NCBI GenBank assembly: GCA_937890765.1
Contig: CALADQ010000007.1
Coordinates: 125,880-157,879, forward strand
Source: an uncultured Candidatus Neoarthromitus sp.
GTDB taxonomy: Bacteria; Bacillota; Clostridia; Clostridiales; Clostridiaceae
DNA: 32,000 nucleotides
Reading direction: 5' to 3'
Under the pieces are notes generated by a model. It had not been told where the DNA came from. It ran no database searches and saw nothing but the letters and a program-made list of their open reading frames with translations. Shown one piece after another: positions 2,302 to 28,166 of the stretch. The position numbers and the translations under genes are program-made. Position 1 is the stretch's first letter. Each line of letters begins with the position of its first letter.

Positions 2302-2311
2302 AGAGGTAGTT

Positions 2312-11585: not shown

Positions 11586-11627
11586 CTTTTGGCAAGTGTT
11601 ATAAACATTTGCCAAAAGTTTTTTTTT
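11586..11627 (+). terminator. Strong Rho-independent terminator
   Basis: 15-bp stem, 11586-11600 pairing with 11604-11618, with core CTTTTGGCAA / TTGCCAAAAG. 3-nt loop, then a T9 run at 11619-11627. Confidence 0.85.
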
Positions 11628-11674: not shown

Positions 11675-12061
11675 TTAATGATTAATTGACAATGAATAAG
11701 TTCCTATTCCATTGTCGTATGTAAAGTCAACAAAATATTTCGTTTCGCCATTTGGATTAAGCTCAATCGTGTCCTTCGATGGGCCTTTTGTTGACAAATA
11801 TTCGTTTTTATTTTCATCGACTAGCTTTATGTACGTAGTTCCATTTCTTAATTTTAAGTCGTATGAAAATTTCGTAGGTTTCGAAATTGTAAATTCATAA
11901 CTTTCTGTTCCAGAGAATTTTGAAAAATTTGACGAAATCGGAGTGTCTATTGTTAATTCTCCTAGTATTACTCTTGACTTTTTTGGAGTGTTTGAACACG
12001 ATACAAGAGTTATTGCCAAAACTATTGCAAGAGTATTTAGTATTAGGAATTTAATTTTCAT
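11675..12061 (-). CDS. Small lipoprotein (128 aa), divergent from the giant-protein operon
   Basis: RBS AAGGAGAG. The signal peptide has lipobox 'LAITLVSC'. The mature part is beta-rich, e.g. 'TKYFVDFTYDNGIGTYSLSINH'. Confidence 0.75.
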   Translation of the reverse strand: MKIKFLILNTLAIVLAITLVSCSNTPKKSRVILGELTIDTPISSNFSKFSGTESYEFTISKPTKFSYDLKLRNGTTYIKLVDENKNEYLSTKGPSKDTIELNPNGETKYFVDFTYDNGIGTYSLSINH

Positions 12062-12135
12062 TAGAGAGCTCTCCTTTTATAAATTTTTTATAAGTATTCC
12101 AATATTTTATATAAAGTTTCATAAAATATCAAATT

Positions 12136-12164
12136 TTAACAGTTATTTTAAAAATGCCTATTAA
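12136..12164 (+). promoter_or_regulatory. Best sigma-A-like promoter match upstream of the giant-protein operon
   Basis: TTAACA (12136-12141), 17-nt spacer, TATTAA (12159-12164). The predicted TSS at about 12171 would start the mRNA at the GGAGG of the RBS, giving a very short leader. This call is therefore doubtful. Confidence 0.3.
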
Positions 12165-12182
12165 AGATTAGGAGGAAGTGTT

Positions 12183-15100
12183 TTGACAAAAAAGATTTTT
12201 AGATTTTTAAATTTTATATTTTTGCTGATGTTTGTTTGTAATTACATAATTCTTAATAATTCATTCGCTCAACCTAAAAATCTTAAAAGTTCAGAAGAAT
12301 TAACTTTAGATTTTGATGTCAGTAACGTCGATCTTAAGTCAGCAACTTTTAGTTGGTCTTATCCAGAAGATATGAAATTTTCTATGGGAGATTATATAAA
12401 TTTAATTGTTATTGATGAGGATGTTGGGGATAATGGGCAGGTTCCTATATTTTCTGTTGCACACAACATGGATAATATAAATTTAAAATCTATAACAAAA
12501 TTTGAAACGAAATCACTAGCAGCTTCTACAAATTATAAAGCTAAAATTGAATTGGTAAAATCAAACGGTGATGTTTATTTAGGTGAATATTCTTTTTCAA
12601 CAGTTGAATTTACAATTTCTGATATGGCTTTTCAAGGAGTTGTTGATAACAAGGCTAACAAAAAAAATATTAGGATTACTTGGAATGTAAGTCATAAGAA
12701 TTTTGAATTGGATGATGGCGATAAAATTCAAATTTTTATGAAAAAATTTAGCGATAATGATTTTTTTAAAACTCCTATTTATGAAACTAAAGACAAATTA
12801 ACACGAGCTGACATTGAAGTTCCAAATTTCGAAGAGGATTACGAATTTAAAATAGTTTATGTTATGGGTGAAAAGAAAGTTGAAAGTGAAATTTTTGGTT
12901 TGAATGTTTCGGCTGACGGAATTGACTTTAAAGTTAAAGACATAACTTCAAGTTCCGCTAAGCTCGATTGGTATTTTCAAAATGCTGAAGTTTTAAACGC
13001 CACTAGCCAAATTGAAATTTTTGCAAAAGAAAGTTCCACAGCGGAGTATGTCAATAAACCAATTTTGAGTTTAAAGGGAAGAGAAGATTTAATTGATGGT
13101 GGAGAATATTTTCTTGACGATTTGAAGCCAAACACAAAATACAATGTGAAAGTTAAATATATTGTTGAATATATAAACCAGTTTGATAAAAATTTTCCTG
13201 TAACTAAGGAAGATGAATATGAATTTACCACTGGAAAGTTTGCTGTAAAAGATTTGAAAATCACACCATCATCAAATAATAGATGTGTTTTAAGTTGGGA
13301 TTATGATGGAGATGCCGTTACGTTTTCTGAAGATGATAATGCAAAAATTTTTATTAAAGAGAGTTCGGTTGGAAGTTTTTCACAAGAAACTTTAACAATA
13401 TCGGAAAGTCTTTTGCAAACTAAAAAAGCAGATTTAGTTTTCCCAAAATTCAATACAAAATATGATGTGAAAATTGTTTTCAACGTTGGAGAAAAATATA
13501 TAGATAATTACATAAGTTACGTTGTGGAAGTTCCCGAAATAGATTTTAAAATTAAGGAAATAAAAAATAATAGTTTAAAAATTATTGCGACCGTAAATGA
13601 GAAAACTATTTTTGAAGATGGTGATAAAATTCAAATTTTTGCAAAGAAGCAAAGCGAAACAAATTTTCAATTTAATCCGATTAAAGAAATTGTGAAAAAT
13701 CCAAATGAACAACTTCCAATTGGAAGCAATCGCGAAATAGAAATAAATATACCAGATGTTCAAGCGAACTTACGCGAAGAACCTCAAGATAAAAAATACG
13801 ATTTTAAAATCAACGTAATAAAGAATCAAAATATTTTTCAAGAAAAAATTTACAGCGTTGAATTTAAAAATGATTCTCTACAAATTGTAAATGTATCTTT
13901 TATTAAAAAGAATGAAAAAGAAATAGATGCAATTGTTGAGTATGCACCTAGTGATTACGAATTCAACAATAAAGTTACCTCATTAAGTTTGTTTAAAAGC
14001 AAGTACGTAGAAGAAAATAATTCTACTTCATCGCCGAACAATACAAAAAAAGAAAATTCACCAAAAGCAGATCAAGAAATTAAATCTGATTTCAAAACGA
14101 ATAACAAATTCACAATAAAGTTTGAAGATTTTTCAAAATATAAACTAAAGTTTACATACACTCTTAAGAAACAAAGTGGAAGTAGTAGTGGTGCAGATAC
14201 TTCTGATGGAGGAACATCATCAGAACATTCAGATGCTCAACAACAAGCTCATCAAAATCAGAATGGGCCTAGTTCAGATTCAACAGATATTGGCGCACAA
14301 GGTCAAGCTGGAAATATTGAAGGCTCAACAAATGTTAATACACAACCACAAACGGGAAGTAATGGAGATGATAGAAATCAAACAAATGATCATCAGCAAT
14401 CAAATGAACCCAATGAACAATTGTCACAACAGGATGGGCAAAACAATCATGAAACAAATGATAGAGAAGAAAGTTTAGAACCAGTTACAAAATCACAAAT
14501 CTTAAAAAAGAGAGAAACGACTTCGTCTTCTTCTTCACCTTCTGAATCTTCATCTACTCCAACTCCAAATGAGACAGAAAAAGTTGAAAGAGAAGTTATT
14601 TACGATAATAAATTTGATATTTTTTCATTTGGATTAGTTGATGTGGTGATGAATGAAATAAAATTAAGTTTTGATTTTAAAAATTATTACACCTTCAAAA
14701 ATAGAGATAAGATTGAAATTTTTGTGAAGAAAGTTGGAGAAGAAGAGTTCAAAGATTTACTTGTAACATTTGAACACAATGGTAGTAGTGTCAATCTTGG
14801 TGATATAGAAAATTTTGATTTGGTTGGTTTGGATCCGGGAAATTCTTACGTGTTTAAAGCAAAATTAAGTTTGGCTTCCAACAAAGATGCTATTATCGAA
14901 AAAGAAGTTGAAGTTTCAACTGTTCCGATTACGTTGGATGATGTTACGGTTGAACATATTTCTGATTTAACAGGTGTTGTTAGATGGAGATTGGGAAATA
15001 ATTTTAAATTTGGACCTGATGACGTTTTAAATATTTTTTATAAAAAAGAAAATGAAAGCAGTTATCCTTCAGAGCCAAATGAAATTATTGAAGAAATTAA

Positions 15101-16769
15101 TTTGACAGACAGCGTGTTCATTTACATGGATAACATAGATAAAAAATACGATGTGAAATTAGTTTTTAAGAGTGGTGAAAAAACTTTAGAGAAAGAATTA
15201 AAATTTAATACTTCAGTTGATAACTTAGATGCAATGATAAATGATATTTATCAAACTTCTGCATATTTAAAATGGAATTATCCAAAAGACTACATGTTGA
15301 CAGATGGAGAAAGCATTTCTGTTTTTGTTAAAGAAAGTAGCCAATCAAGTTATGGAGAAGAGCCAGATTATTTTATGGAACAAAATGAAGAAGAGTCAGA
15401 AATTTTAGATAATTTTAAAAGTGCAAAGTTGTTTGACCTTTTGCCAAATACAAATTACGATGTAAAAGTTTTTTTAGATTTGGGAGACATAGGCACTAAA
15501 GAATTAGAAATAAGTTTTAAGACTGAAGATATTTTAATATCTGATTTGCAATTAACTGAATTTAAACCATACGAATTCAACGTTTTTTGGGAATTAAATT
15601 CAGATACAATTGATTTCAATGAAGAGTATGATTCTCTTGATATATATATGAAGATTCCAGAAGAAACTTGGAATGAAGATAATTTGATTTACAGTTTTTC
15701 AAAAAATTTAAATAACTTTAATAAAGTGAGATTTGTAGTTGATGACGTTACGATTGTTTATGATGTGAAAATTGAATACAATTTGGTGAACAAAAAGATT
15801 TCTAAAACTTTTTCGACAGGACTTTTTTATATTGATTATAACGAACAAGAATATGGAACTGTTGATGTGATAGTAAAATATCCTTCTGCAATTAATTTCA
15901 AAGACGGCGATGAATTAATTGTTTACGTCGCTAAGCCAAAACAATCTAATTATGAGCAAAAGTTTTTATCTAAACAAAGTTCTTCGAACGATTTGAAATC
16001 TTTAAGAGGAATAATTTTAAAAGACCTTAAACAGACCTCATCCATTGCCGCTAGCTTAAAAAGCAAGTCTGTAAAAATTTTCCCGTCAGAAATTATTTAT
16101 GATACTAGAGCCGAAAATTCATCAACCCTTGAAATTGTAAGTGAGCTTAAAGGTGGTTCAATAGATATTGACCTTCCTGTTGATTATGAACTCGATTTGA
16201 AAGCAGAAATAAGAAATAGCATAGGAGGACGTTCCTATTATGAAAAATTAGATGATGGCACTTATGTAATAGTCATAGATAACATAGTTCCCAAGAAAGT
16301 ATATAAAGAAACTAAACTTATTGCACAAGACGTAGATGGAAAAGAAGTTGAATTATTTATAGATGAATTTACATTGGAGCCTGAAAATTTATTGGAAGAT
16401 TTTTTATATAATTCTTATTATTTTGCATTTGATAGATCTCCAGACGAAGGAGGTTACACTTATTGGAAAGGAAAGCTTGAAGAAAATGGAGATATAACTG
16501 GAAGATATTTTTTGGTAAATTTAATGTTTGCAGAAAAAGAATTTGCAGATAGAAATTTAGAAGATGATGCTTTGGTAAAAGTTTTGTACCAAATCGTAGT
16601 TAATAGAACTTACGATTCCAAAGGATTAAGTTATTGGGTTGCAATATACAAACAGTATTTGAACAAATTTAATGGAGATAGATACGAAGCGAAAAAAACA
16701 ATAGTTATGAGAATGGTTAACGAACCAGAATTTCAAAGATTGTGTAAGAAAATGAAAATAAAGTGGTGA
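12183..16769 (+). CDS. Giant secreted multi-module (Fn3-like) surface protein 1 with central disordered linker and C-terminal DUF4214-type domain (1528 aa)
   Basis: AGGAGG (12170-12175) lies 7 nt before TTG 12183. Signal peptide is 'KKIFRFLNFIFLLMFVCNYIILNNSFA/QP'. About 11 roughly 100-aa modules carry 'W.YP', 'GD.I.IF.K' and 'PNT.Y.VKV' / 'YDVKIVF' motifs. The C-terminus is 'FAFDRSPDEGGYTYW...VVNRTYDSKGLSYW'. Confidence 0.85.
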   Translation: MTKKIFRFLNFIFLLMFVCNYIILNNSFAQPKNLKSSEELTLDFDVSNVDLKSATFSWSYPEDMKFSMGDYINLIVIDEDVGDNGQVPIFSVAHNMDNINLKSITKFETKSLAASTNYKAKIELVKSNGDVYLGEYSFSTVEFTISDMAFQGVVDNKANKKNIRITWNVSHKNFELDDGDKIQIFMKKFSDNDFFKTPIYETKDKLTRADIEVPNFEEDYEFKIVYVMGEKKVESEIFGLNVSADGIDFKVKDITSSSAKLDWYFQNAEVLNATSQIEIFAKESSTAEYVNKPILSLKGREDLIDGGEYFLDDLKPNTKYNVKVKYIVEYINQFDKNFPVTKEDEYEFTTGKFAVKDLKITPSSNNRCVLSWDYDGDAVTFSEDDNAKIFIKESSVGSFSQETLTISESLLQTKKADLVFPKFNTKYDVKIVFNVGEKYIDNYISYVVEVPEIDFKIKEIKNNSLKIIATVNEKTIFEDGDKIQIFAKKQSETNFQFNPIKEIVKNPNEQLPIGSNREIEINIPDVQANLREEPQDKKYDFKINVIKNQNIFQEKIYSVEFKNDSLQIVNVSFIKKNEKEIDAIVEYAPSDYEFNNKVTSLSLFKSKYVEENNSTSSPNNTKKENSPKADQEIKSDFKTNNKFTIKFEDFSKYKLKFTYTLKKQSGSSSGADTSDGGTSSEHSDAQQQAHQNQNGPSSDSTDIGAQGQAGNIEGSTNVNTQPQTGSNGDDRNQTNDHQQSNEPNEQLSQQDGQNNHETNDREESLEPVTKSQILKKRETTSSSSSPSESSSTPTPNETEKVEREVIYDNKFDIFSFGLVDVVMNEIKLSFDFKNYYTFKNRDKIEIFVKKVGEEEFKDLLVTFEHNGSSVNLGDIENFDLVGLDPGNSYVFKAKLSLASNKDAIIEKEVEVSTVPITLDDVTVEHISDLTGVVRWRLGNNFKFGPDDVLNIFYKKENESSYPSEPNEIIEEINLTDSVFIYMDNIDKKYDVKLVFKSGEKTLEKELKFNTSVDNLDAMINDIYQTSAYLKWNYPKDYMLTDGESISVFVKESSQSSYGEEPDYFMEQNEEESEILDNFKSAKLFDLLPNTNYDVKVFLDLGDIGTKELEISFKTEDILISDLQLTEFKPYEFNVFWELNSDTIDFNEEYDSLDIYMKIPEETWNEDNLIYSFSKNLNNFNKVRFVVDDVTIVYDVKIEYNLVNKKISKTFSTGLFYIDYNEQEYGTVDVIVKYPSAINFKDGDELIVYVAKPKQSNYEQKFLSKQSSSNDLKSLRGIILKDLKQTSSIAASLKSKSVKIFPSEIIYDTRAENSSTLEIVSELKGGSIDIDLPVDYELDLKAEIRNSIGGRSYYEKLDDGTYVIVIDNIVPKKVYKETKLIAQDVDGKEVELFIDEFTLEPENLLEDFLYNSYYFAFDRSPDEGGYTYWKGKLEENGDITGRYFLVNLMFAEKEFADRNLEDDALVKVLYQIVVNRTYDSKGLSYWVAIYKQYLNKFNGDRYEAKKTIVMRMVNEPEFQRLCKKMKIKW
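12306..14171 (+). repeat. Protein-level tandem array: Fn3-like modules 1-6 of protein 1
   Basis: Six roughly 104-aa units are anchored by 'FSWSYP', 'ITWNVS', 'LDWYFQ', 'LSWDYD', 'KIIATVNE' and 'DAIVEYAP'. Two module flavours alternate. Boundaries are approximate. Confidence 0.6.
14172..14580 (+). other. Low-complexity S/Q/N/T/D/G-rich linker (about 136 aa) with locally raised G+C
   Basis: 'QSGSSSGADTSDGGTSSEHSDAQQQAHQNQNGPSSDSTD...TTSSSSSPSESSSTPTPNETEK'. It contains almost no hydrophobic residues. A second reading frame stays open here (14176-14478) because of the codon bias. Confidence 0.8.
14590..16110 (+). repeat. Protein-level tandem array: Fn3-like modules 7-11 of protein 1
   Basis: Units are anchored by 'KLSFDFKN', 'VRWRLGN', 'LKWNYPK', 'VFWELNS' and 'VIVKYPS', each about 101 aa. 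Boundaries are approximate. Confidence 0.6.
16386..16766 (+). other. DUF4214-type C-terminal domain of protein 1
   Basis: Two copies of the DUF4214 signature (aromatic-x-x-hydrophobic-x-R-x-P/Y-D-x-x-G-x-x-Y/F-W): 'YYFAFDRSPDEGGYTYW' and 'QIVVNRTYDSKGLSYW'. 'FAEKEF' lies between them. Confidence 0.65.
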
Positions 16770-16776
16770 TATAAAT

Positions 16777-19700
16777 ATGTCATTGTTTAATTATAATAAA
16801 CAATTTTTAAAAAGATTTTTAGCCAGATTATTATTGATTTGTTTTTTCATAGACATAGTCCCATTGCCTAAAAATATAAACAAAATTTTGAATAATAAAT
16901 TTGACGCTAAAGCTTTTGCTAGTCAAAGTGAAGCAATTTCTCCAGGATATGTTATAAGATCAGAGGAGGGAGGAATAACATTTGACTTAAGCAACAGACT
17001 TACTGAGAACATGACAGTTGAATCCCTAAGTTTTAAAAATACAGATCCATCAAAGCGTAGTCAAGATAGACCAGAAACAAAATTTAACGGTCAAAATCAT
17101 AAATGGTTTTCAAATGACGCTTTGTTTAACGGAGACATATACGAAATCGAAACTGTTATTTATGATGCTGAATCAAAAAAATCTTTAAAATTTATAAATT
17201 CTTTTAAGTACAATGACACTAATGAAAAATTTAAACCAATTATAAGATTTATAAATTCTAGTGAAAGTGCAGATCGTTTTATTAATAATGATGTTGAAGT
17301 TGATTTTTCGGGTTGTTCTGAAATATTAGGCAAATACAATGATTTTAAAATAGATATTTTAAATTCTGACTATACACCAATAGGAATTGAAACCTTAGAT
17401 ATAAGTTTAACAAATTTAAGAAGTTTTTCATATAAAATATCTTTCGTCAATGTTTCAAAATTGTTTAAATCAAATACAGATTATATAATTAGGGTTAATG
17501 CTGAAGGGAATATGTTTGAATATTTATTTTCAGCTACCATAAAAAAAGATAAGAGCATAAAAAAAATGTTTGACCCATCTGATATTGCTTGTGTTTTTGA
17601 TCCTGTTTTTAGAAAACTTAGATTATATATGGATGATTTTAAATTGTTCAATCATCCGGATCTTCCAATGGAAATAGTTTTACAAGATGCTAATGAACGT
17701 TTAAGACCTTCGATAACTCAAATTATGTATAATGAAGGATTTATTTCTTTAGATGTACCAGATGAATATTTTGGATTAAAGCAACCTTCAAATGTAACAT
17801 TGAGATATATGAATTCATTAGGAGAAGCTTCTGAAATTACTTCTTTTCAAATAAGTTTTCCATACACGGATAATATGGCTACTAATTTTATTTGGTTAGG
17901 TTTAGAGACAAAGGAAATAGAAGTAAAGGATGGATATCAATTTACCGAAGTTAAGCTAACTGATAATTCTGAAGGATATAGAATACCACATTCATGGGAT
18001 AATCTACCTAAGGTTCATTATGTTACGATGTATGATCATACAAAAACAAAGCAAATAGGTGGGGAACTTAGAGTAGAAGTTATTAATTCAAAATATGATT
18101 TTTTAGAAAAAAATCATGAAGTTTCAGGTGCAGATTTTAAAATTAGATATCATGATATGGCTCAAGGTATAAATACATGTTATTTTAAGGTCCAATCTAG
18201 CAGTAATCTCCAAGAGTGGAGAGAAGCTTATTTACCAGTTACTTTTTATGCAGATATAATTCAATTTAGTTTTTTAGAAGTAGATATGGATGAGTTAGTG
18301 GTTTCTAAACAAGGAGCAAATTTATATAATTTTAGATTAACTCCTAAGGGAGTAGAATTTAAATCTGGAGATATTATGTCAGTTATTGATGATGAAGGTA
18401 ACGAGCATAAAGCAAAAACAGTAAATGGAAAAAATTTTTCATTTACTAATGTACCTGTTTTGATGGGTGGTAAATATTTAGTAACTTTAAATAGTGCTAC
18501 TGGGTTAATTTATTTTAATTCTGTAGATTCGTCAATATTGTTTAATCCTTCAATAATAGCTACAAATATAGATAATCAAGAGGCTATCGATATTAAGTTT
18601 GATAATAAACTTTCAGCATTATTAAATTCTACATCTTCTAATAATAATGTGAAAATATTACATGAAAATGGTAATTCAACCGAAAATAATTTTTCGAATA
18701 TAGTGAGTGGTTCAAATAAATTTAAGTTGAATAAAGGACTTGTAAAAGGTGAAAGATATATTTTAGAATTTAATAATGGTTCTCACATATTTAAAACAAC
18801 TTTTGAATATGCTCCGCTCAGGGTTTCTTTAGATAAAGCGACGGGCACAACTGCTAAGTTAGCTTGGGAATATCCAAGTAATTATTTAATTATGGAGGGA
18901 GATATTTTAAATATATACTTTAAAAAAGATGGATATAGTTATCAAGCTGTTCCAGATGCTAAAATTGTTCATGGTTTTCAAGAGATAGATTTTGATAAAG
19001 TAAGAACATATACAATAAAGAATTTGAGTCCAAATATAAATTATACAGCTAAACTTGAACTTATAACCAGTACGGGACTTACATTCTCAAGCGAAGTTGA
19101 ATTTGTAACTAGTGATTTTAAAATTTTAAATGAAACTATTGATGGATTATCAGAAGAAGGTTCAATAAATAAAAAAAATATCGATATAACTTGGGATATA
19201 AATCAAGCTGATATGGAATTTTCTCAGGGGGATAGGATAGATATTTTCCTAAAATTGAAATCTCACGATGTTTTTCCAAGAACTCCAGTTCATGTAATAA
19301 ATGAAGATTTAAATAGAATAAGGAGAGCAAGCATAGAAGTTCCCAATTTTGAAGAATCTTATAGTCTTAAGATTGTATATAACATAGGTGGAACACGACA
19401 TTCAGGTAATGTTTTGAATTTTGATGTTAAAATGAAAGGAACGGAGATCAATGCAAGCGAAATTAAACCTTCAAGTTTCATTATCAATTGGACTTATCCA
19501 GAAGAAATGATTTTTACAGAAGGTCAAGAGTTAAGATTATTTATTAAAAAATCTAATGATCCTAGTTTTCCAAATGATCCTTCTTTTAATGCGATACAAG
19601 GAGGAGAAACGAATTTAAAAAATATCGTTAATTACAAATTTGAGAATCTAAATGAGGACACTATATATCAAGTTAAATTAGAACATAAAATCGATGAAAA

Positions 19701-22700
19701 AACCGTTGCAGGAGTAAAAGAGGAAGTTTTAAGTAGAGATCAAAAAGAAGTTAGAACGGCGAAATTCTTAATTGATGGTTTTAAAGTGATTCCTGTAGAA
19801 GGTAAAAAAATAAAATTAAAGTGGAATGTTTCAGAAAAAGATTTTTCTTATTCAGATCAAGATAAAATAGATGTTTATATAAAAGAACGTTCTCATTCTG
19901 ACTATTCTAATCAAAAGATTAATAGAAAAAAGGATTTTGATCTAAGAGAAGTAGAATTTGATTTGGATAAATATGATACTGAATATGATATAAAGGTTGC
20001 GTACACGCTTTTTGGAAAAGAAGTTTCAGGTTATACAAAGTATGTTTTGAAAATAGGTGAAGTTTTATCTAAAATAGATTCAATAGGAGATAATTCTGTT
20101 ACTATTAGTTGGACTTATCCTAAAAATTATCAATTACATGATGGAGACAGAATAGAAATAAGTTATAAAAAGAAAGATGATAATGAGTGGATAAATGGGA
20201 TTGATAATAATTCTCAAACTCAACAAGAAAATGGAAGTTATAAGCTTGTTATTCCTAATTTAGAAAAAGATCAAAATTATGAATTGAAATTTATTTTTAC
20301 ACCTAATGGTTTAGAGCCTAGAGAAACTTATTATACATTTAAAGCTACTAATAATTTTCAAATTTCTAGATTATATTTCAAGAATATAAATTCAAAATCT
20401 ATAAAATTAAATTGGGATGTTTATCCGAAAAATTATAATTTTGATTCCAAGGATAGAGTTGAGGTACTTTATAAAAAAGTAGAAGATAATTCTGAAAATG
20501 GTGACGAGACTGTTGCTGTGACTAAAAGTGAAAGTTTAAGTAAGTTTAATAATTTTACTGTAGAAGGTTTAGAGCCTGAAAAAGATTATGTTTTTAAAAT
20601 AAAATATACAATTAATAAAACATCAGATAGCAATAGTCCAATCACTGTTGAAGAAACTATAGGAGCTAGAACTGTTTTTGGTAAATTTGATTATTTTACG
20701 CTTGATACAGGAGTGAGTAGCGTTAAGTTTGAGGTTGCTTATCCAGAAAATTATGAAATAAAGGCTAATGATACATTAGATATATTTGTTAGGGATAAAA
20801 AAGAAGCTTCATATCCTTCTAAAGCTAATTTTACAGCAGTTCATGGAGAAAATGTTGAAGGATTTGGAGAAGTAGATTTAAATGAAATAAATGTATTGGA
20901 TATTTTAGGTTTATCACCTAATACTGATTATATTGCTAAGGCAGTGTTTTGGCCTGAAGGTGGAAAAGGTGTTAAAGTAGAGAAAGAAGTTAATTTTAAA
21001 ACTGGTTTAATAAACGGACTTGAAGAAGTTTTTGTTGTTAATTCAAAAGACCATTTAGTTACAGTTGGAATTAAAATGAATCCAGATGAGATAATTTATG
21101 GATCTGATGCTGTGTGTAAGTTGTATGTGAAAAAGAAAACTGATCCAGATTTTCCAAACGAGCCAAGTGGAGAAGCAAATGGAGAAATGTTAAATGAAAC
21201 AAATATAGCGGACGCATACTTTGAAGATTTAAATACCGAATATCACATAAAAGTTATATTAAGTATTGGATCTTCTGTTTACGAAAAAATAATTGATTTT
21301 AATTCAAAAGTTGATGAACTCGCAGTTGAAGTTAAAGAAATAAATCCTATGACTGCACAAATTGAATGGAAATATCCTCAAAATTATACTTTAGTAGATG
21401 GAGAAAAGGTTCAGATATTTACTAAATATAAAGATGAAGAGGCTTATTCTGATACTCCAGATTTAGAATTGGTTCAGTCTGAAGCATTGAGTTTAGCAGA
21501 TATAAATTTAATAGAGTTATCAGCGTTGATACCAGACACTGATTATGATGTTAAGGTTGATTTGAAACTTTTAGAAACAGAGTTGCCTCCGGTCACAAAA
21601 AGTTTTACAACTGAACATTTTTCAATTGAAGATTTGTCAATTAAAAGTATAAGTGAAGATGCGATTTCAATAAGTTGGTCTTTGGACACTGAAGAAATTG
21701 AATTTATGGATAATTACGATAACTTGGGAATTTTTATAAAAGGTGCTGATGATGAAGAATATGATTTTTCAGAACCTATTGTAGAATTTACGGAGGAATT
21801 AAATGAGATAAGGTCAGCTTCGTTTAATGTTGATGGAGATACTTCAAAGCTTGATATTTTAGTTTCATATTTAGTTGAAGATTATGAATCTTTTTCAGAA
21901 TTGAAATTTAGTCCTATTATTTTTGAGGCGAATGTAAAAGGAAGTAATGTTTTAATTTCTTGGGAATACCCTGAAGGTGCAGAATTTACAGACGGCGATA
22001 AATTGGATTTTTATTTGAGAACTTTTGATAATCAAAATTATCCACCAGATCCATTGATAAGGCAAGTTCATGGAGAAGATGTTGATTTAAATGAGTTGAC
22101 TGAAATAGAACTAAGCGATGTTGATCCGGGGTCTTATGTCCTTAAACTTCAATTAACAACTGATAGAGTAAATTATAGTCCAGTTGAAGCAAAGTTTGAT
22201 ATAAATAAAAAAGTTACTTCTTCAGGTGGAAGTTCTCAATCTCAAAATTCTTCTGGAAGTTCTATACCCGTCAAAGTTGTCGATAAAGTTCAAGGAAGAG
22301 GTGTAGTTTTGGATTTGGGTTCTGATTTTGAAATAGATTTTGAAGAAGAAATTGCTATTAAGCCAACAGGTTTAAAAGTTGAAGAAGGAGAAACTGAATC
22401 AGATATTGTGGTTAAGAATTTGGTGCCAGGAAAAGAATATAAATCAATTATTATTGTGGCGACAACGACAGATAACAAAAAGATAAAATTATCTACAAAA
22501 AATGTTAAGATAGAATCAGAAAATCCGCTTCAGGAATTTGTAACTAACATTTATAATTTTGCTTTTGAACGTTTTCCTGATGAAGAGGGGTATAGTTATT
22601 GGTTAGATAAACTTATTGAGAAGAAAGATATAACTGGTAAATATGTTCTTTACAATTTGATGTTTGCAGAAAGAGAATTTTCTGATAGAAATTTGCCAGA

Positions 22701-22908
22701 CGATGAACTCATAAAAGTTTTATATCAAATTGTTGTTAATAGAACTTATGATGAGGAAGGTTTGCAATTCTGGATAAAAGAATATAACGAAACGTTTTTG
22801 CCTAATGCTAATAATGATGCGTTTGAAGCACAAAAAGCAATTGTTACGAGAATGTTATACGAGCAAGAATTTAGAAATTTGTGTGATAAGTTAGGTATAT
22901 TGTGGTAA
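16777..22908 (+). CDS. Giant secreted multi-module (Fn3-like) surface protein 2 with unique N-terminal region and C-terminal DUF4214-type domain (2043 aa)
   Basis: ATG is 7 nt after the stop of gene 1, with GGTGA RBS at 16764-16768. The N-terminus has hydrophobic 'FLARLLLICFFIDIV' and a possible cleavage site 'AKAFA/SQ'. An 11-module array follows, collinear with protein 1. The C-terminus is 'FAFERFPDEEGYSYW...VVNRTYDEEGLQFW'. Confidence 0.85.
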   Translation: MSLFNYNKQFLKRFLARLLLICFFIDIVPLPKNINKILNNKFDAKAFASQSEAISPGYVIRSEEGGITFDLSNRLTENMTVESLSFKNTDPSKRSQDRPETKFNGQNHKWFSNDALFNGDIYEIETVIYDAESKKSLKFINSFKYNDTNEKFKPIIRFINSSESADRFINNDVEVDFSGCSEILGKYNDFKIDILNSDYTPIGIETLDISLTNLRSFSYKISFVNVSKLFKSNTDYIIRVNAEGNMFEYLFSATIKKDKSIKKMFDPSDIACVFDPVFRKLRLYMDDFKLFNHPDLPMEIVLQDANERLRPSITQIMYNEGFISLDVPDEYFGLKQPSNVTLRYMNSLGEASEITSFQISFPYTDNMATNFIWLGLETKEIEVKDGYQFTEVKLTDNSEGYRIPHSWDNLPKVHYVTMYDHTKTKQIGGELRVEVINSKYDFLEKNHEVSGADFKIRYHDMAQGINTCYFKVQSSSNLQEWREAYLPVTFYADIIQFSFLEVDMDELVVSKQGANLYNFRLTPKGVEFKSGDIMSVIDDEGNEHKAKTVNGKNFSFTNVPVLMGGKYLVTLNSATGLIYFNSVDSSILFNPSIIATNIDNQEAIDIKFDNKLSALLNSTSSNNNVKILHENGNSTENNFSNIVSGSNKFKLNKGLVKGERYILEFNNGSHIFKTTFEYAPLRVSLDKATGTTAKLAWEYPSNYLIMEGDILNIYFKKDGYSYQAVPDAKIVHGFQEIDFDKVRTYTIKNLSPNINYTAKLELITSTGLTFSSEVEFVTSDFKILNETIDGLSEEGSINKKNIDITWDINQADMEFSQGDRIDIFLKLKSHDVFPRTPVHVINEDLNRIRRASIEVPNFEESYSLKIVYNIGGTRHSGNVLNFDVKMKGTEINASEIKPSSFIINWTYPEEMIFTEGQELRLFIKKSNDPSFPNDPSFNAIQGGETNLKNIVNYKFENLNEDTIYQVKLEHKIDEKTVAGVKEEVLSRDQKEVRTAKFLIDGFKVIPVEGKKIKLKWNVSEKDFSYSDQDKIDVYIKERSHSDYSNQKINRKKDFDLREVEFDLDKYDTEYDIKVAYTLFGKEVSGYTKYVLKIGEVLSKIDSIGDNSVTISWTYPKNYQLHDGDRIEISYKKKDDNEWINGIDNNSQTQQENGSYKLVIPNLEKDQNYELKFIFTPNGLEPRETYYTFKATNNFQISRLYFKNINSKSIKLNWDVYPKNYNFDSKDRVEVLYKKVEDNSENGDETVAVTKSESLSKFNNFTVEGLEPEKDYVFKIKYTINKTSDSNSPITVEETIGARTVFGKFDYFTLDTGVSSVKFEVAYPENYEIKANDTLDIFVRDKKEASYPSKANFTAVHGENVEGFGEVDLNEINVLDILGLSPNTDYIAKAVFWPEGGKGVKVEKEVNFKTGLINGLEEVFVVNSKDHLVTVGIKMNPDEIIYGSDAVCKLYVKKKTDPDFPNEPSGEANGEMLNETNIADAYFEDLNTEYHIKVILSIGSSVYEKIIDFNSKVDELAVEVKEINPMTAQIEWKYPQNYTLVDGEKVQIFTKYKDEEAYSDTPDLELVQSEALSLADINLIELSALIPDTDYDVKVDLKLLETELPPVTKSFTTEHFSIEDLSIKSISEDAISISWSLDTEEIEFMDNYDNLGIFIKGADDEEYDFSEPIVEFTEELNEIRSASFNVDGDTSKLDILVSYLVEDYESFSELKFSPIIFEANVKGSNVLISWEYPEGAEFTDGDKLDFYLRTFDNQNYPPDPLIRQVHGEDVDLNELTEIELSDVDPGSYVLKLQLTTDRVNYSPVEAKFDINKKVTSSGGSSQSQNSSGSSIPVKVVDKVQGRGVVLDLGSDFEIDFEEEIAIKPTGLKVEEGETESDIVVKNLVPGKEYKSIIIVATTTDNKKIKLSTKNVKIESENPLQEFVTNIYNFAFERFPDEEGYSYWLDKLIEKKDITGKYVLYNLMFAEREFSDRNLPDDELIKVLYQIVVNRTYDEEGLQFWIKEYNETFLPNANNDAFEAQKAIVTRMLYEQEFRNLCDKLGILW
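18823..22200 (+). repeat. Protein-level tandem array: 11 Fn3-like modules of protein 2
   Basis: Units of about 102 aa are anchored by 'LAWEYPS', 'ITWDINQ', 'INWTYPE', 'LKWNVSE', 'ISWTYPK', 'LNWDVYPK', 'FEVAYPE', 'VGIKMNPD', 'IEWKYPQ', 'ISWSLDT' and 'ISWEYPE'. Boundaries are approximate. Confidence 0.6.
22525..22905 (+). other. DUF4214-type C-terminal domain of protein 2
   Basis: 'IYNFAFERFPDEEGYSYW', 'FAEREF' and 'QIVVNRTYDEEGLQFW'. By eye this is the part of the two giant genes that is most similar at nucleotide level. Confidence 0.65.
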
Positions 22909-22922: not shown

Positions 22923-22960
22923 TTTGGTCATTAGTTTTATCTAGTGGCCAAAATTTTTTT
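22923..22960 (+). terminator. Rho-independent terminator of the giant-protein operon
   Basis: 12-bp stem TTTGGTCATTAG (22923-22934) / CTAGTGGCCAAA (22941-22952) with two G-U pairs, 6-nt loop, then A + T7. Confidence 0.8.
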
Positions 22961-22986
22961 AGTTAAATAAATTTTTGTGTTATTAT
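22957..22986 (+). promoter_or_regulatory. Candidate extended -10 promoter for zapA
   Basis: TGtTATTAT at 22978-22986. There is only a weak -35-like T-rich hexamer about 17 nt upstream. Confidence 0.35.
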
Positions 22987-23028: not shown

Positions 23029-23550
23029 ATGAATATTGTAACGATTAATGTAAATGGCATCGAATATAAGTTAAAGGGTGAAGAGTCTGAAGAATATTTA
23101 AGTGATATCGCGAATGAAGTCGATATTAAATTAAGAGATATGATTGGAGCAAACACAAATTTGACATTGCAATCAGCGGCGGTTTTGTTATCTATAAATT
23201 ATTGCGACCAAATACGAAAGCTTAAAGAAGAACAATATGCTTTAGATAATAGCATTGATGTTTGCAATTCCAAAATAAGAAATTTAATTGATGAAAATTC
23301 TAATCTTAAAGACAGGGTTATACATATTGAAAATGAAAATGTGCAATTTAAATCTAAAATTTCAAGTTTAGAGGAAGAAATTCAAGCTTACAACGATTTG
23401 TTGAAATCAGAAAAGCAAGATATGTTTTCTGATAGTAATGAGATGAAAGAACTTGAAAAAGAAATAGAGATTTTGAAAAATACAATACGCAAATTAAATG
23501 ATGATAATTTTAAATTGAAAAAGCAACTTAGGCACAAAAAAGATTTCTAG
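23029..23550 (+). CDS. zapA: Cell division protein ZapA with long C-terminal coiled-coil extension
   Basis: GGAGG RBS. The N-terminal roughly 75 aa, 'VTINVNGIEYKLKGEESEEYLSDIANEVDIKLRDM...LQSAAVLLSINYCDQIRKLKEE', follows the ZapA pattern. The remaining roughly 100 aa are heptad-rich. Confidence 0.75.
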   Translation: MNIVTINVNGIEYKLKGEESEEYLSDIANEVDIKLRDMIGANTNLTLQSAAVLLSINYCDQIRKLKEEQYALDNSIDVCNSKIRNLIDENSNLKDRVIHIENENVQFKSKISSLEEEIQAYNDLLKSEKQDMFSDSNEMKELEKEIEILKNTIRKLNDDNFKLKKQLRHKKDF

Positions 23551-23640
23551 CATTTTGTTTAATTTATTTTTGAAATTTGGAAATGTTTATAATAAAGATG
23601 TGCTTTTTGAAATACAAAAAAATTTTTCGGTAATCACACA

Positions 23641-23677
23641 GGAGTATGTATTCTTAAATCATACTCCATATTTTTTT
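23641..23677 (+). terminator. Rho-independent terminator downstream of zapA
   Basis: GGAGTATG (23641-23648) / CATACTCC (23660-23667), 11-nt loop, then ATA + T7. Confidence 0.65.
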
Positions 23678-23680
23678 CAG

Positions 23681-24583
23681 TTACAAATTTAAATTAGTAA
23701 ATGTTATTAGTATTTGAGTATTCTTTATTTTTTTGTTTACTATTTCCTTAATCCTTATTCTAATCAAATCAAACTCATCAACTGAAAAATTTCCGTCAAC
23801 TCCTAATGTAATATAAATTTCTGTAAATTTCCCAAGCCTTGAAATAAATATATCATGAATATCTAGATATGGAAGTTCAGTAATAAGAGACGCTTTAAGA
23901 TCTTTTTCAGATTTGTGGTTTAGGCGTTTATAAGACAATATATTTATTTGATTTATTAAAAGTTGTAGTGGTTGAATTGCAAAAAATCCTGATAGAAGCA
24001 ACAATAAAATTGCATCTGATATAGGAAGAAGTGGTTTTAAAATTGGAATTGTTTTAAATAACACAAATGCAATTGCCGTTCCCGCACTTATAATTCCATC
24101 GAGATTTGCACCCATTGCCTCAGCTTTCAAAACGTCAGAGCAATTTCCTATTTTTTTGTTGAAAAATTTATAAAGTATGGACAACCCAAAACATAAAATT
24201 GTCATTATTATACCGTTTATAATTATTGCTCCAAGATGTATTTCAGGAACTAATTCAGGTGTGTTTAAAAATTTTAATATGGTATCTATCCCAGAAAAAA
24301 TAGATGCGAGCAAAAGAATTATTATAAGAATTGATCTAAAAAGTACATACAATGTTTCTTTGCTGTACGGCCCCAATGGATATTGTTTAACGCTTGAAGT
24401 CGATAATCCTTTAGAAATTTTTACAGCTACTATCGTCGATATAAATTGTATAAATGAAAATAATCCATCAATTAATACTGCTTTCGAATTAGAAAACATA
24501 AAAACAATAACTCCAGAAATTGACATCGTAAGGTTTAAAATGTTTCCTATCTTAAGTGCTCTTTGCTCAATTAATAAATCCAT
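23681..24583 (-). CDS. Cation diffusion facilitator (CDF) family transporter, divergent
   Basis: 'EQRALKIGNILNL...SNSKAVLIDGLFSF' has a typical CDF N-terminus/TM2 layout. There are six hydrophobic segments. The C-terminal cytoplasmic domain pattern is 'YLDIHDIFISRLGKFTEIYITLGVDGNFSVDEFDLI'. Confidence 0.7.
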   Translation of the reverse strand: MDLLIEQRALKIGNILNLTMSISGVIVFMFSNSKAVLIDGLFSFIQFISTIVAVKISKGLSTSSVKQYPLGPYSKETLYVLFRSILIIILLLASIFSGIDTILKFLNTPELVPEIHLGAIIINGIIMTILCFGLSILYKFFNKKIGNCSDVLKAEAMGANLDGIISAGTAIAFVLFKTIPILKPLLPISDAILLLLLSGFFAIQPLQLLINQINILSYKRLNHKSEKDLKASLITELPYLDIHDIFISRLGKFTEIYITLGVDGNFSVDEFDLIRIRIKEIVNKKIKNTQILITFTNLNL

Positions 24584-26829: not shown

Positions 26830-26850
26830 TTTTTATTGTGATGCTTTTTT
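26821..26850 (+). terminator. Rho-independent terminator after the GT51 gene
   Basis: 10-bp stem GCATCATAAT (26821-26830) / ATTGTGATGC (26835-26844) with one G-U pair, 4-nt loop, T6 at 26845-26850. Confidence 0.6.
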
Positions 26851-26851
26851 G

Positions 26852-26860
26852 TGTTAAAAT
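26852..26860 (+). promoter_or_regulatory. Candidate extended -10 promoter for the SBP / NanE-like pair
   Basis: TGtTAAAAT at 26852-26860, immediately after the terminator. This is the same 9-mer as upstream of recJ. It lies inside the spurious N-terminal extension of the ORF-track ORF (26838). Confidence 0.4.
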
Positions 26861-26903
26861 GATAGAAAAAATTCAATTAAAAAATTTTGGAGTTAAAGTA
26901 AAT

Positions 26904-28166
26904 ATGATAAATAAATTTTTGAAAAATTTCGTTACGATGGTATTTGTTCTATTTGTTTTAATGTCCTGTTTGTCTGAAAGTAAAAGCAAAAATTCCAGTG
27001 AAATTTTTGAAGAACAATCTGTTATAAATTTATGGACTTCAAATTTGAAACCACGATTAGATAAATATATGAAATACGTTATCGAAAAATTTAAAAAAGC
27101 AAATCCTATGATTAAAATTAATTGGACGGATTTTTCTACTGAAGAAATGGTTTTGAATTTATATTCATCATGGCAAGAAAATAATTTGCCGGATATAGTT
27201 AGTTTTGATGCAAAAACTTTAATGAATGATATTAATGATGAATTGATTGTGGATTTATATAAATTTGATGACGAATTTTTAAATACGTTTTTCGAAGGAA
27301 TTTTAAAATCTTCTGAAAAAAATAATAGGCTACTTGGTGTTCCATGGTTTACGGATATAAAAGTTTTGTTTATAAACAAATCTATAATGGACATGTCAAA
27401 CATTGATGAAGAAAATTATCCAAAGAACGAAGATGAATTTTTAAATTTGATGAATGTTGTTAAAAATAATTCTGGGAAATTTGGTAGCGTTATTGAACCC
27501 GAGAGCATAAAAAATTTAATTTTCAACGGACTAAATGTTTTTGGAGAAAATGGACAAGTTTATATTCAAACGCCACAAATAATTGAACATTTTAAATCCC
27601 ATAAATCTAAATTTGAAAATATGGTTGTGCCAAATCAGTTTTTAAATTTTGATGATAAGATATTTTTGTATGCAAACAATGAAGTTGCAATGATAAAATC
27701 AAATTTTCAATTTATAAATAGCATAGAAAAAATATCAAAAGAAGTCTATGATAACACGGTCATTTTTCCAATTCCAGTTGGAGAAAATGATTTGCGTTAC
27801 ACCAATACGGTTTATTTGTCCGTAGTTGATAATGGAAAAAATGAAGAGCTAGCTATGAATTTTATAAAATTTATATTAAACGACCAAAATCAATTGGAGC
27901 TTTCAAACACAACAAATGTTTTGCCTGTTGTAAAAGAAACTTTCAAAAATGAAATTTCTAATGACGAAAATTCAAAAATTAACAAAGCAAAAAAAGTTGC
28001 ATTCGATAGTTTGAATAAAGGAAGGGATTTTATATACAACATAGAACACTATAATCAAATATCAAATATAGTTGAAAAATATTCCAGAAGTATTTATTTA
28101 GATGGTTTAGAAGTTGAAAGTGTACTAGGCAATGCACAACAAGAGATAAATAAATTTTATAATTAA
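26904..28166 (+). CDS. ABC-transporter-type extracellular solute-binding lipoprotein (family 1, sugar-type), with no cognate permease or ATPase nearby
   Basis: ATG 26904 has a GGAG RBS at 26889-26892. Lipobox is 'VLFVLMSC'. 'IEKFKKANPMIKINW', 'LPDIVSFD' and 'LGVPWFTDIKVLFINKSIM' are typical of sugar SBPs. Confidence 0.8.
   Translation: MINKFLKNFVTMVFVLFVLMSCLSESKSKNSSEIFEEQSVINLWTSNLKPRLDKYMKYVIEKFKKANPMIKINWTDFSTEEMVLNLYSSWQENNLPDIVSFDAKTLMNDINDELIVDLYKFDDEFLNTFFEGILKSSEKNNRLLGVPWFTDIKVLFINKSIMDMSNIDEENYPKNEDEFLNLMNVVKNNSGKFGSVIEPESIKNLIFNGLNVFGENGQVYIQTPQIIEHFKSHKSKFENMVVPNQFLNFDDKIFLYANNEVAMIKSNFQFINSIEKISKEVYDNTVIFPIPVGENDLRYTNTVYLSVVDNGKNEELAMNFIKFILNDQNQLELSNTTNVLPVVKETFKNEISNDENSKINKAKKVAFDSLNKGRDFIYNIEHYNQISNIVEKYSRSIYLDGLEVESVLGNAQQEINKFYN

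Follow-up and report, generated by a model that had tools for sequence, protein, structure and literature searches.

Two adjacent, collinear FnIII-array proteins with a putative DUF4214 anchor in segmented filamentous bacteria

Segmented filamentous bacteria (SFB) are gut commensals that train host immunity. They have neither sortase nor SLH domains, and DUF4214 is common to many of their predicted surface proteins (PMC3371716, PMC7474095, PMC12780176); it is regarded as the likely surface-anchoring module of these sortase-less bacteria (PMC12780176, PMC7474095). A group of SFB-specific secreted DUF4214 proteins was catalogued in 2012 ('Cluster.1' and 'Cluster.3'), including one Cluster.3 member with an fn3 domain (Pamp et al. 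2012, PMC3371716). SFBNYU_003240, from which a CD8 T-cell epitope is known, also belongs to the group. The Th17 antigen p3340 (SFBNYU_003340) was assigned by Jonsson et al. to the proteins sharing this conserved C-terminal motif, and immuno-EM located it at the cell wall (PMC7474095). In Pseudomonas putida, the ligand of the RTX-DUF4214 protein Psh is O-antigen at the cell surface (bioRxiv 10.64898/2026.09.02.748959). Psh is a secreted repetitive protein with a C-terminal helical DUF4214, retained on the cell surface via this surface glycan.

Among the rod-like surface proteins of Gram-positive bacteria are the G5-E repeat proteins SasG/Aap of Staphylococcus, and Bap and Ebh are other giant repeat adhesins. 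LPXTG and sortase attach them to the wall, and their repeats are near-identical and recently expanded; SasG/Aap alternate two flavours of small beta domain in long chains, which hold a functional region far out from the cell. In the super-repeats of titin, each domain is closer to its positional counterpart than to its neighbour. Sap and EA1 of Bacillus anthracis, encoded by adjacent genes, carry SLH domains, and the Cwp proteins of Clostridioides difficile carry CWB2, both of them non-covalent wall-binding modules; the proposed logic in both is one conserved anchor module per surface-protein family, adjacent paralogues included.

The window analysed here, a stretch of 32,000 nucleotides, is from an SFB (Candidatus Arthromitus / Savagella / Dwaynia group) and contains two genes on the forward strand, to which the coordinates below refer. 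The P1 gene (12,183-16,769) encodes 1528 aa from a TTG start and the P2 gene (16,777-22,908) encodes 2043 aa from an ATG start; both products match fn3 and DUF4214 above the Pfam cut-offs. The AGGAGG ribosome-binding site of P1, read directly in the sequence (12,170-12,175), lies 7 nt 5' of the TTG. The block TTTAACAGTTATTTTAAAAAT (12,135-12,155), ~30-45 nt 5' of the P1 start, is near-invariant in an alignment of P1 upstream regions from four SFB lineages and is probably a promoter or operator; a sigma-70 consensus scan is uninformative in this AT-rich DNA, giving 72 sites where 72.8 were expected. The TGA stop of P1 (16,767-16,769) is separated from P2 by 7 nt and is overlapped by the weak P2 ribosome-binding site GGTGA (16,765-16,769), 7 nt 5' of the ATG. 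In other SFB lineages the gap is ~23 nt with a GGAGG and without a terminator. The unit 5' of the pair is closed by a terminator at 11,586-11,618, and that of the P1-P2 unit (22,923-22,962) has a 12-bp stem with four GC pairs and a 6-nt loop (22,923-22,952), followed by a T-run. Since the gap is 7-24 nt in all lineages and a single terminator lies downstream, P1 and P2 are almost certainly co-transcribed as a two-gene unit. A sequence-only reading had described two co-directional genes 7 nt apart followed by one terminator; its ORF coordinates, stop, start and GGTGA site were exact, the terminator was found, and all peptides it quoted are present in the two translations.

Named homologues of P1 and P2 were found only in Candidatus Arthromitus (SFB) and Ca. 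Dwaynia gallinarum, annotated as 'DUF4214 domain-containing protein'. There are 48 clusters of P1 orthologues (1380-1558 aa) and 18 of P2 orthologues (all 2027-2069 aa). Both paralogues have the same architecture and neighbourhood in rodent (rat, mouse), chicken and MAG lineages of SFB, and their pairing is invariable in the lineages examined; in mouse SFB, the P1 orthologue lies directly upstream of that of P2 (BAK79619.1 / EGX29034.1). The gene order HK, MurG, TPR, small lipoprotein gene, P1, P2, ZapA, CDF, MATE, MtgA is identical in rat SFB-Yit, mouse SFB and MAG.106, and the Ca. Dwaynia contig, which begins within P1, keeps this order from P1 onwards. Orthologues of P1 and P2 are 43-61% identical between lineages, whereas the housekeeping-type neighbours are mostly 58-81% identical and the small neighbours hyp193, NanE and RpiR are as divergent as P1 and P2. 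The divergence of the pair appears surface-protein-like. P1 and P2 are uncharacterised members of the secreted DUF4214 group catalogued in 2012 (PMC3371716), although the sequence-only reading could not assign them to any described family: they come from the same lineage, have a secretion signal at the N-terminus and DUF4214 at the C-terminus, evolve fast and are polymorphic between strains, and are far larger than most other members. In the literature we found no experimental localisation or expression data for either protein, nor any account of the pair with its collinear array of 11 + 11 modules, of the head of P2 or of the hinge of P1. Three known T-cell epitopes, SGLIYVTL, QFSGAVPNKTD and IRWFGSSVQKV, the latter two being peptides of SFBNYU_003340, are not present in the P1-P2 locus. 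To our knowledge, SFB are genetically intractable.

P1 begins with a Sec-type signal peptide, assigned by inspection (aa 1-29, predicted cleavage SFA|Q; 12,183-12,269); the TTG start yields MTKKIFRFLNFIFLLMFVCNYIILNNSFA|QPK, which fits the signal peptides of orthologues such as P0020 (MINRIFRFLNL...). It is followed by FnIII modules m1-m6 (aa 40-661; 12,300-14,165), delimited by a module HMM and matching P2 m1-m6 by position, a hinge of ~150 aa (aa 662-809; 14,166-14,609), modules m7-m11 (aa 810-1295; 14,610-16,067), delimited by the HMM and lineage profiles, a 12th beta-sandwich domain, D12 (aa ~1302-1394; 16,086-16,364), and DUF4214 (aa ~1403-1528; 16,389-16,766). The AlphaFold2 (AF2) models of the P1 C-terminal part and the P2 head have pLDDT 85-87. 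That of the C-terminal part (86.6 for m9-m11) shows three beta domains, a further beta domain and a helical domain in this order, and its inter-domain geometry is unreliable (pTM 0.51). In Foldseek, m9-m11 group with FnIII tandems, and four-domain fibronectin fragments align across all four beta domains, D12 included. The all-helical DUF4214 (~8 helices) scores 47-56 bits with PF13946, for which the cut-off is 23.2, and no other region of P1 is as conserved: its mean identity between lineages is 77%. The low-complexity hinge, rich in S, T, N, Q, D and E, ranges from ~20 to 140 aa between lineages with a mean identity of 23%, and alleles within a lineage differ mainly there, indels included. 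A local GC bump is seen at the hinge.

P2 is composed of an N-terminal signal, a head of ~630 aa, 11 FnIII modules, D12 and DUF4214. Its signal (aa 1-46; 16,777-16,914) has a hydrophobic core at aa 14-30 and a long polar stretch to Ala46 (AKA|F), a residue invariant in 17 P2 orthologues, and may be a cleaved signal peptide or a signal anchor. With ~16 polar residues between the core and the putative cleavage site it is atypical; P2 could therefore remain tethered to the membrane by its N-terminus, in which case its topology would be reversed or looped. The head (aa 50-678; 16,924-18,810) was modelled as ~6 beta-sandwich domains (all-beta, pLDDT 85.3). It has no Pfam match, Foldseek gave only generic multi-Ig, FnIII and macroglobulin-domain strings (TM < 0.2), and, beyond the P2 family itself, a profile search of 1.84 billion representatives returned just a fragment and one weak match; judged by these searches, the head is specific to SFB. 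Modules m1-m11 (aa 679-1795; 18,811-22,161) were assigned by Pfam, module HMM and positional profiles. D12 (aa ~1815-1915; 22,219-22,521), aligned with that of P1, is variable (mean identity 37% between lineages), and DUF4214 (aa ~1918-2043; 22,528-22,905; PF13946, 41 bits) is the most conserved region of P2 (80%). The DUF4214 of both proteins, the 12th beta domain, the ~6 N-terminal domains of P2 and the hinge of P1 were all absent from the sequence-only reading.

An iterated module HMM found exactly 11 modules in each protein and the same number in the rat and mouse SFB orthologues. The modules matched Pfam fn3, and their AF2 models grouped in Foldseek with tandem FnIII structures (fibronectin Fn7-10, contactin, LAR, titin). 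Titin, fibronectin and contactin were the top matches, but the first two are eukaryotic proteins, intracellular or of the matrix, with no sequence kinship to P1 and P2 beyond the fold (10-14% identity). By BLASTP, P1 53-669 aligns with P2 692-1287 and P1 763-1528 with P2 1263-2043, at 28-33% identity. The same-position P2 module was the best pairwise match for 8 of the 11 P1 modules, and none of 100,000 permutations reached the diagonal sum of the position profiles. With profiles from 11 lineages, the non-self group closest to P1 module i was P2 module i in the case of m1-4, m7 and m9-11; for m8 it ranked second, and m5 and m6 were too diverged for placement. The match between P1 and P2 by position is a pattern like that of the titin super-repeats. 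Modules of the same parity scored 26 bits against each other and those of different parity 14 bits (p = 1e-12); there are thus two flavours, one of the odd and one of the even modules, which alternate along the chain.

No recent repeat expansion has taken place, as the locus contains no DNA-level tandem repeats, which, together with the old, position-specific modules, sets P1 and P2 apart from SasG/Aap, Bap and Ebh. The duplication appears ancient since both paralogues are present in the rodent, chicken and MAG lineages of SFB and P1 and P2 are only 28-33% identical to each other, compared to 43-61% between orthologues. On this comparative evidence, both arrays derive from the duplication of an 11-module array that was already differentiated by position, before the SFB lineages split. 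The Fn3-like modules, the secreted-type rods with N-terminal signals, the collinear order, the two flavours and an old duplication without recent expansion had all been proposed from the letters alone and were borne out. The equal module count held for the recognisable FnIII arrays, 11 each, but not for the whole proteins, as P2 has ~6 extra beta domains.

The absence of classical anchors was likewise confirmed: neither protein has an LPXTG tail or any match to SLH, CWB2, LysM, GW or choline-binding domains at E <= 0.1. As stated, however, the lack of a wall anchor does not hold, because both end in DUF4214, the likely anchor in the SFB literature. With p3340 at the cell wall, Psh on its surface glycan and the strong conservation of the domain as further evidence, DUF4214 is the putative anchor of P1 and P2. 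Psh differs in its Gram-negative host, RTX repeats, type I secretion system and O-antigen ligand, whereas P1 and P2 have FnIII repeats, an N-terminal Sec signal and a monoderm host. SLH and CWB2 are unrelated to DUF4214, although the logic of one conserved anchor per family would be shared.

We propose that P1 and P2 are Sec-exported FnIII rods held on the wall by DUF4214, and we consider it probable that they are part of a proteinaceous outer coat of SFB. P1 would be a chain of 12 FnIII-type beta-sandwich domains and P2 one of ~18. An FnIII domain is ~3.5 nm long, so the rods are estimated at ~40 nm and ~60 nm, respectively. DUF4214 would hold each protein non-covalently on a cell-wall glycopolymer with the N-terminus outward. 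The complete differentiated array, comprising the 11 modules, D12 and DUF4214, was duplicated before the known SFB lineages diverged; P2 bears the SFB-only head, which would be an exposed tip, and P1 would be a rod that lacks a head and has a hypervariable, flexible hinge. In P1 and P2, module conservation correlates by position (Spearman 0.70, p = 0.016, n = 11); with the invariable co-occurrence and likely co-transcription of the genes, this is circumstantial support for the possible paired or heteromeric fibril suggested in the sequence-only reading.

Cryo-ET of SFB revealed hair-like structures outside the wall. Their thin, elongated subunits measure 28 ± 4 nm and 34 ± 6 nm in length and ~1.4 nm in width and are spaced at 5 nm; they are described as of 'molecular composition unknown', and the Th17 antigen is excluded as a component (PMC12780176). 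P1 and P2, as thin multi-FnIII rods with a putative SFB anchor that are kept in all SFB lineages examined, are always paired and are position-correlated in module conservation, are possible components, yet the identification is doubtful: the predicted extended lengths exceed those measured, an FnIII domain is ~2-2.5 nm wide, and at least 14-19 other SFB DUF4214 proteins are equally eligible.

The pattern of variability bears on a different role, in which P2 would serve as a host-specific adhesin, alone or among others, using its hypervariable head to bind an epithelial ligand at the tip of the holdfast, and P1 would be a separate spacer or decoy rod without physical association with P2. SFB attachment is host-specific (PMC7474095, PMC12780176). 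The SFB-only head is the fastest-evolving part of P2, particularly aa 151-365 (17,227-17,871), where mean identity between lineages is 23-34% compared to 47-55% for the rest of the head. Compared with the relative P0002, 86% identical overall, this region is 61-63% identical and the rod modules 81-100%, most of them at least 92%. Two head alleles occur among mouse SFB strains nearly identical in the rest of P2, with 140 of 146 differences in aa 140-659 and just 4 in the rod of 1140 aa. That the variation is seen inside a single host species, the mouse, however, argues equally for immune or phage pressure, neither Foldseek nor Pfam detected a lectin or other known binding fold in the head, and nothing confines P1 or P2 to the tip. 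We regard this role as rather unlikely; the data are compatible with both a coat structure and an adhesin function.

In a further reading the pair would be a protective shield, concealing components of the wall from phages, antibodies or antimicrobial peptides as Psh masks phage receptors; the hypervariable exposed regions are compatible with phage or immune pressure. Psh binds surface glycan and blocks 16 phages (bioRxiv 10.64898/2026.09.02.748959), and the hair-like layer keeps antibody from the wall-associated Th17 antigen (PMC12780176). For P1 and P2 this is pure analogy, with DUF4214 as the sole common element, both RTX repeats and a type I secretion system being absent here, and we judge it unlikely, although it is compatible with a coat rather than exclusive of it. 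A fourth reading assigns the pair to the S-layer (8 nm lattice) of the unicellular intracellular-offspring stage, wholly or in part, or to sequential use like Sap and EA1. That S-layer is replaced during outgrowth, and Cruz et al. drew the Sap/EA1 analogy (PMC12780176), to which two adjacent paralogues with a shared anchor domain would correspond. Extended rods of 12-18 domains do not resemble the 8-nm subunits described, which are globular and crescent-shaped (PMC12780176), and the 7-24 nt gap without a terminator favours co-expression over a switch, which makes this reading quite improbable. That P1 and P2 are released proteins or pseudogene-like relics is very improbable: many SFB extracellular proteins look anchorless (Jonsson et al., PMC7474095), but every lineage keeps the ORFs of 1.4-2.1 kaa intact, their length and architecture unchanged in the main, and DUF4214 is strongly conserved.

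Compared to the DUF4214 proteins described so far, the locus adds a whole-array duplication that predates the split of the SFB lineages, a hypervariable P1 hinge, and an apparently SFB-only P2 head with a hypervariable sub-region and two mouse alleles. A fast-evolving, allelic head is what would be expected if the tip is exposed and comes into contact with ligands of the host or its immune system.

We examined the architecture of the two giant forward-strand genes of the window, P1 and P2, both of which lie exactly where the sequence-only reading had placed them. P1 occupies 12183-16769 with a TTG start and encodes 1528 aa, P2 occupies 16777-22908 with an ATG start and encodes 2043 aa, and every peptide string quoted earlier was found in their translations. 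Both proteins match the Pfam fn3 family PF00041 (40.3 bits for P1 and 83.9 bits for P2, against a cut-off of 25). The AF2 model of P1 aa 1005-1528 (pLDDT 86.6) shows a tandem array of seven-stranded beta-sandwiches with the FnIII fold: it comprises modules m9, m10 and m11, a fourth beta-sandwich termed D12 (aa ~1302-1394) and a helical bundle. Foldseek matched the beta part of the model best to FnIII tandems, namely those of fibronectin (Fn7B89 at E = 3.9e-15; four-domain fragments), contactins, LAR and titin. A module HMM, iterated from one starting module and run on P1 and P2 of the window and on their rat and mouse orthologues, identified exactly 11 modules in every array, the number counted before. 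The proposed alternation of two module flavours was borne out when odd and even modules were compared (26 vs 14 bits, p = 1e-12).

The arrays of the two proteins proved to be collinear, as had been claimed. BLASTP aligned P1 53-669 with P2 692-1287 at 28% identity and P1 763-1528 with P2 1263-2043 at 33% identity. In a module-by-module comparison, the best match of 8 of the 11 P1 modules was the P2 module at the same position, and the diagonal sum of position-profile scores from three lineages lay above all 100000 permutations. When 11 lineages were used to build the profiles, m1-4, m7 and m9-11 of P1 each had the P2 module of the same number as their best non-self group; the positional counterpart of m8 ranked second, and m5 and m6 were too diverged to be placed. 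Module conservation also correlates by position between the two proteins (Spearman 0.70, p = 0.016, n = 11). No DNA tandem repeats were found in P1 or P2. The positional matches and the absence of DNA repeats uphold the earlier inference that the array was already old and differentiated by position when all of it was duplicated. Since both paralogues are present in all lineages, the duplication predates the lineage split. P1 and P2 thus constitute a clean natural case in which an entire differentiated FnIII array was duplicated and long kept in register.

The homologues of the pair are confined to a narrow group of bacteria. Full-length homologues of P1 (48 clusters, 1380-1558 aa) and P2 (only 18 clusters, all 2027-2069 aa) came exclusively from segmented filamentous bacteria (SFB), Dwaynia or related MAG proteins. 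Those that are named, from Candidatus Arthromitus sp. SFB-rat-Yit, SFB-mouse (BAK79619.1, EGX29034.1) and chicken Ca. Dwaynia gallinarum, are called only 'DUF4214 domain-containing protein'. The surroundings of the pair recur in rat SFB-Yit (AP012210.1, 487-513 kb), in one mouse SFB contig and in MAG.106, in the order histidine kinase, MurG, TPR protein, small lipoprotein gene on the opposite strand, P1, P2, ZapA, CDF, MATE and MtgA. The Ca. Dwaynia contig begins within P1 and keeps this order from there on. Given the shared neighbourhood and the homologue names, the window, with a GC content of about 26%, is DNA of a segmented filamentous bacterium. Its neighbour genes are up to 81% identical to those of chicken Ca. 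Dwaynia, compared with ~64-71% for rodent SFB; by these identities its lineage is nearer to the avian than to the rodent lineage. A phage or mobile-element origin of the pair was rejected on account of the housekeeping neighbourhood conserved across lineages.

Some features of the locus were noted in passing. The ZapA homologue (23029-23550, 173 aa), which adjoins the P1-P2 unit downstream in all lineages, has a long coiled-coil extension. A rubrerythrin gene stands between ZapA and the CDF transporter in rodent SFB (16840-17424 of locus L001) and is missing in the window (23550-23681). The gene for a solute-binding protein (26838-28166) is shared by the window, Ca. Dwaynia and MAG.106 and has no match in the rat locus. 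At 1552-4276, a weak APH-like kinase ORF is followed by three successive ORFs (249, 357 and 275 aa) without a Pfam match.

The arrangement of the two genes was next considered as a transcription unit. The TGA of P1 (16767-16769) is separated by 7 nt from the ATG of P2, with GGTGA overlapping the stop, and the single terminator claimed after P2 is a 12-bp stem-loop with a T-run at 22923-22952; the junction is as described earlier. Four other lineages have a longer gap of about 23 nt, with GGAGG and no terminator in it. A terminator at 11586-11618 ends the preceding unit. The gene directly upstream (11675-12061) lies on the other strand, which makes P1 and P2 a self-contained two-gene unit. The two genes are likely co-transcribed. 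The upstream gene, divergent from P1, encodes a small protein (128 aa) bearing a lipoprotein signal (MKIKFLILNTLAIVLAITLVS ahead of the C); it has no Pfam match and is kept at the same place in rat SFB, mouse SFB and MAG.106 (51-57% identity). Upstream of P1, the block TTTAACAGTTATTTTAAAAAT (12135-12155) is near-invariant in four SFB lineages while the flanking intergenic DNA has diverged. The block is a possible promoter or operator; it gave no convincing fit to any sigma-factor consensus. The assignment of a sigma-70 promoter was rejected as the scan matches were at chance level.

The start of P1 bears on its predicted export. The public gene call P0019 (1513 aa) begins at an internal ATG (12228), so that its signal peptide lacks the n-region. 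A start at the TTG at 12183, behind the ribosome-binding site AGGAGG read from the sequence at 12170-12175 on the forward strand, restores a signal peptide matching that of the orthologues. By inspection, the N-terminus of P1 is a classical Sec signal conserved in orthologues. That of P2 is hydrophobic; its Ala46 is invariant and lies about 16 residues past the hydrophobic core, beyond an atypically long polar spacer. A 1535-aa P1 variant overlapping P2 in the ENA assembly L007 was discarded as a gene-calling artefact in which the TGA is read through, its DNA being identical to the window.

The C-termini placed both proteins in a known family. DUF4214 (PF13946, cut-off 23.2 bits) was detected at 47.2 bits in P1 and at 41.3 bits in P2, and the isolated domain scores 56.2 bits; in the AF2 model of P1 it is a bundle of about 8 helices. 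No LPXTG motif with a hydrophobic stretch and a charged tail is present, both proteins ending in the DUF4214 helices (...KIKW and ...GILW), and the sole matches to LP.[TSA][GNAS] are internal (LPNTN and LPNAN). SLH, CWB2, LysM, GW and choline-binding domains gave no Pfam match at E <= 0.1 in either protein, and an NCBIfam search of the two returned no matches. The contention that a classical wall anchor is missing is therefore literally true by the Pfam and LPXTG scans, but both proteins carry DUF4214, the presumed anchor of this lineage. Anchoring of P1 as a lipoprotein was also considered and rejected: several orthologues have a Cys in the hydrophobic region, but the lipobox is unconserved (FVC in the window, VNC in mouse). 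Since neither a single-sequence nor a profile search with DUF4214 matched a solved structure, the fold link of this domain to a phycobilisome linker (2KY4) is taken from the literature only (PMC3371716). A protein search with the DUF4214 profile gave only 8 short matches, and a contig scan with narrow derived patterns gave 3 loci, which is no census of DUF4214 architectures.

SFB-specific, putatively secreted proteins with a common C-terminal DUF4214 were described by Pamp et al. in 2012, with 19 proteins in Cluster.1 and one member with an fn3 domain in Cluster.3; the authors noted strain polymorphism and proposed that these proteins are components of surface structures (PMC3371716). SFB are without sortase, and Jonsson et al. 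(2020) postulated that this C-terminal motif anchors at least 14 SFB surface proteins; they also mention hypothetical proteins, extracellular and as long as 2040 aa (PMC7474095). DUF4214 is the likely surface-anchoring domain according to Cruz et al. 2025 (PMC12780176). P1 and P2 belong to this already described group of SFB DUF4214 surface proteins, and the statement that they fit no described family does not hold. A literature search found no paper describing the pair, and what is new here is the register-preserving duplication, the allelic hypervariable head of P2 and the hinge of P1. Known SFB T-cell antigens were excluded: the epitopes SGLIYVTL (SFBNYU_003240) as well as QFSGAVPNKTD and IRWFGSSVQKV (3340) are absent from all P2 orthologues and the rat and mouse loci. 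Peptides of a 'DUF4214 domain-containing protein' from human luminal fluid (PMC6034559) likewise had no match in the P1 and P2 homologues compared.

Conservation is distributed unevenly along the two proteins. Between lineages P1 and P2 are 43-61% identical, compared with 58-81% for most housekeeping-type neighbours; the small neighbour genes hyp193, NanE and RpiR are as diverged as P1 and P2. The most conserved part is DUF4214 (77% in P1, 80% in P2), and the least conserved are aa 151-365 of the P2 head (23-34%), the ~630-aa part before the FnIII array, and the P1 hinge (23%). The hinge is a low-complexity stretch of ~150 aa (aa 662-809) between m6 and m7, with a length of ~20 to 140 aa across lineages, and P1 alleles of the window's lineage differ mainly there. 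Identity to an 86%-identical relative is 81-100% in the rod modules of P2 (at least 92% in most), compared with only 61-63% in head aa 151-365. Mouse SFB has two P2 alleles in which 140 of the 146 differences fall in head aa 140-659 and 4 in the 1140-aa rod, which marks the distal head as the place where replacement between mouse SFB strains is concentrated. Unlike these, the chicken Ca. Dwaynia P2 alleles (the P0004 cluster of homologues, 2026 and 2029 aa) differ mainly inside the rod, where aa 660-1799 hold ~30 of the 32-35 differences, which suggests a different local replacement.

P2 aa 50-690 had no Pfam match. The AF2 model of the head (pLDDT 85.3) shows about six beta-sandwich domains, and Foldseek found likeness to generic multi-domain strings only. 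When the head profile was searched against 1.84 billion representative proteins, the only matches outside the P2 family were a fragment and one weak 248-aa match. The latter protein, P0110, weakly resembles the first two head domains (E = 3.4e-5) and has a signal peptide of its own; it may represent a free-standing relative of the head.

We consider it rather probable that P1 and P2 are rods that would be exported by Sec and retained by DUF4214 on a wall glycopolymer, projecting with the N-terminus outwards. An FnIII domain is ~3.5 nm long. At this length P1 would form a rod of ~40 nm, flexible in the middle, and P2 one of ~60 nm with a variable head. The orientation predicts that the most conserved end is the anchor and the most variable end is distal, and the conservation gradient agrees.

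What such rods would build is a more tentative matter. Three surface structures were seen in the images of Cruz et al. (PMC12780176). The filament has a hair-like layer whose subunits measure 28 +/- 4 nm in length and 1.4 nm in width at a spacing of 5 nm, the adhesive tip bears disordered fibrils of 34 +/- 6 nm, and the unicellular offspring carry an S-layer. P1 and P2 could possibly be DUF4214-anchored building blocks of the hair-like structures, in the filament layer and/or the tip fibrils of the offspring, with the exposed P2 head meeting host epithelium, IgA or phages and adding to host specificity. Shape and anchor make them plausible; however, the rods as predicted are somewhat longer and wider than the imaged structures, and at least a dozen further DUF4214 proteins are rival candidates, so that we hold this assignment lightly. 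About equally speculative is an adhesin role for the P2 head, which partly overlaps with the roles of shield and S-layer component. A shield, by analogy with Psh, the RTX-DUF4214 protein of Pseudomonas putida that stays on the cell via O-antigen binding (2026 preprint, bioRxiv 10.64898/2026.09.02.748959), seems somewhat less likely still. Psh-type proteins combine RTX calcium-binding repeats with type I secretion, whereas P1 and P2 have no RTX (HemolysinCabind) Pfam match and an N-terminal signal instead, with no type I secretion genes among the window neighbours. That the pair supplies the S-layer is improbable, as its extended rod architecture is atypical for S-layer proteins.

SFB are the textbook example of commensals that induce Th17 and IgA responses in the intestine, and their effects depend on host-specific attachment. 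Since they are genetically intractable, candidate lists derived from sequence drive experiments. The present analysis singles out a universally conserved pair with the right gross shape, thin rods of tens of nm, and the putative anchor of the lineage. The pair supplies specific, testable candidates for SFB surface biology, namely the mouse orthologue of P2 (BAK79619.1 / EGX29034.1) and the partner encoded upstream of it.
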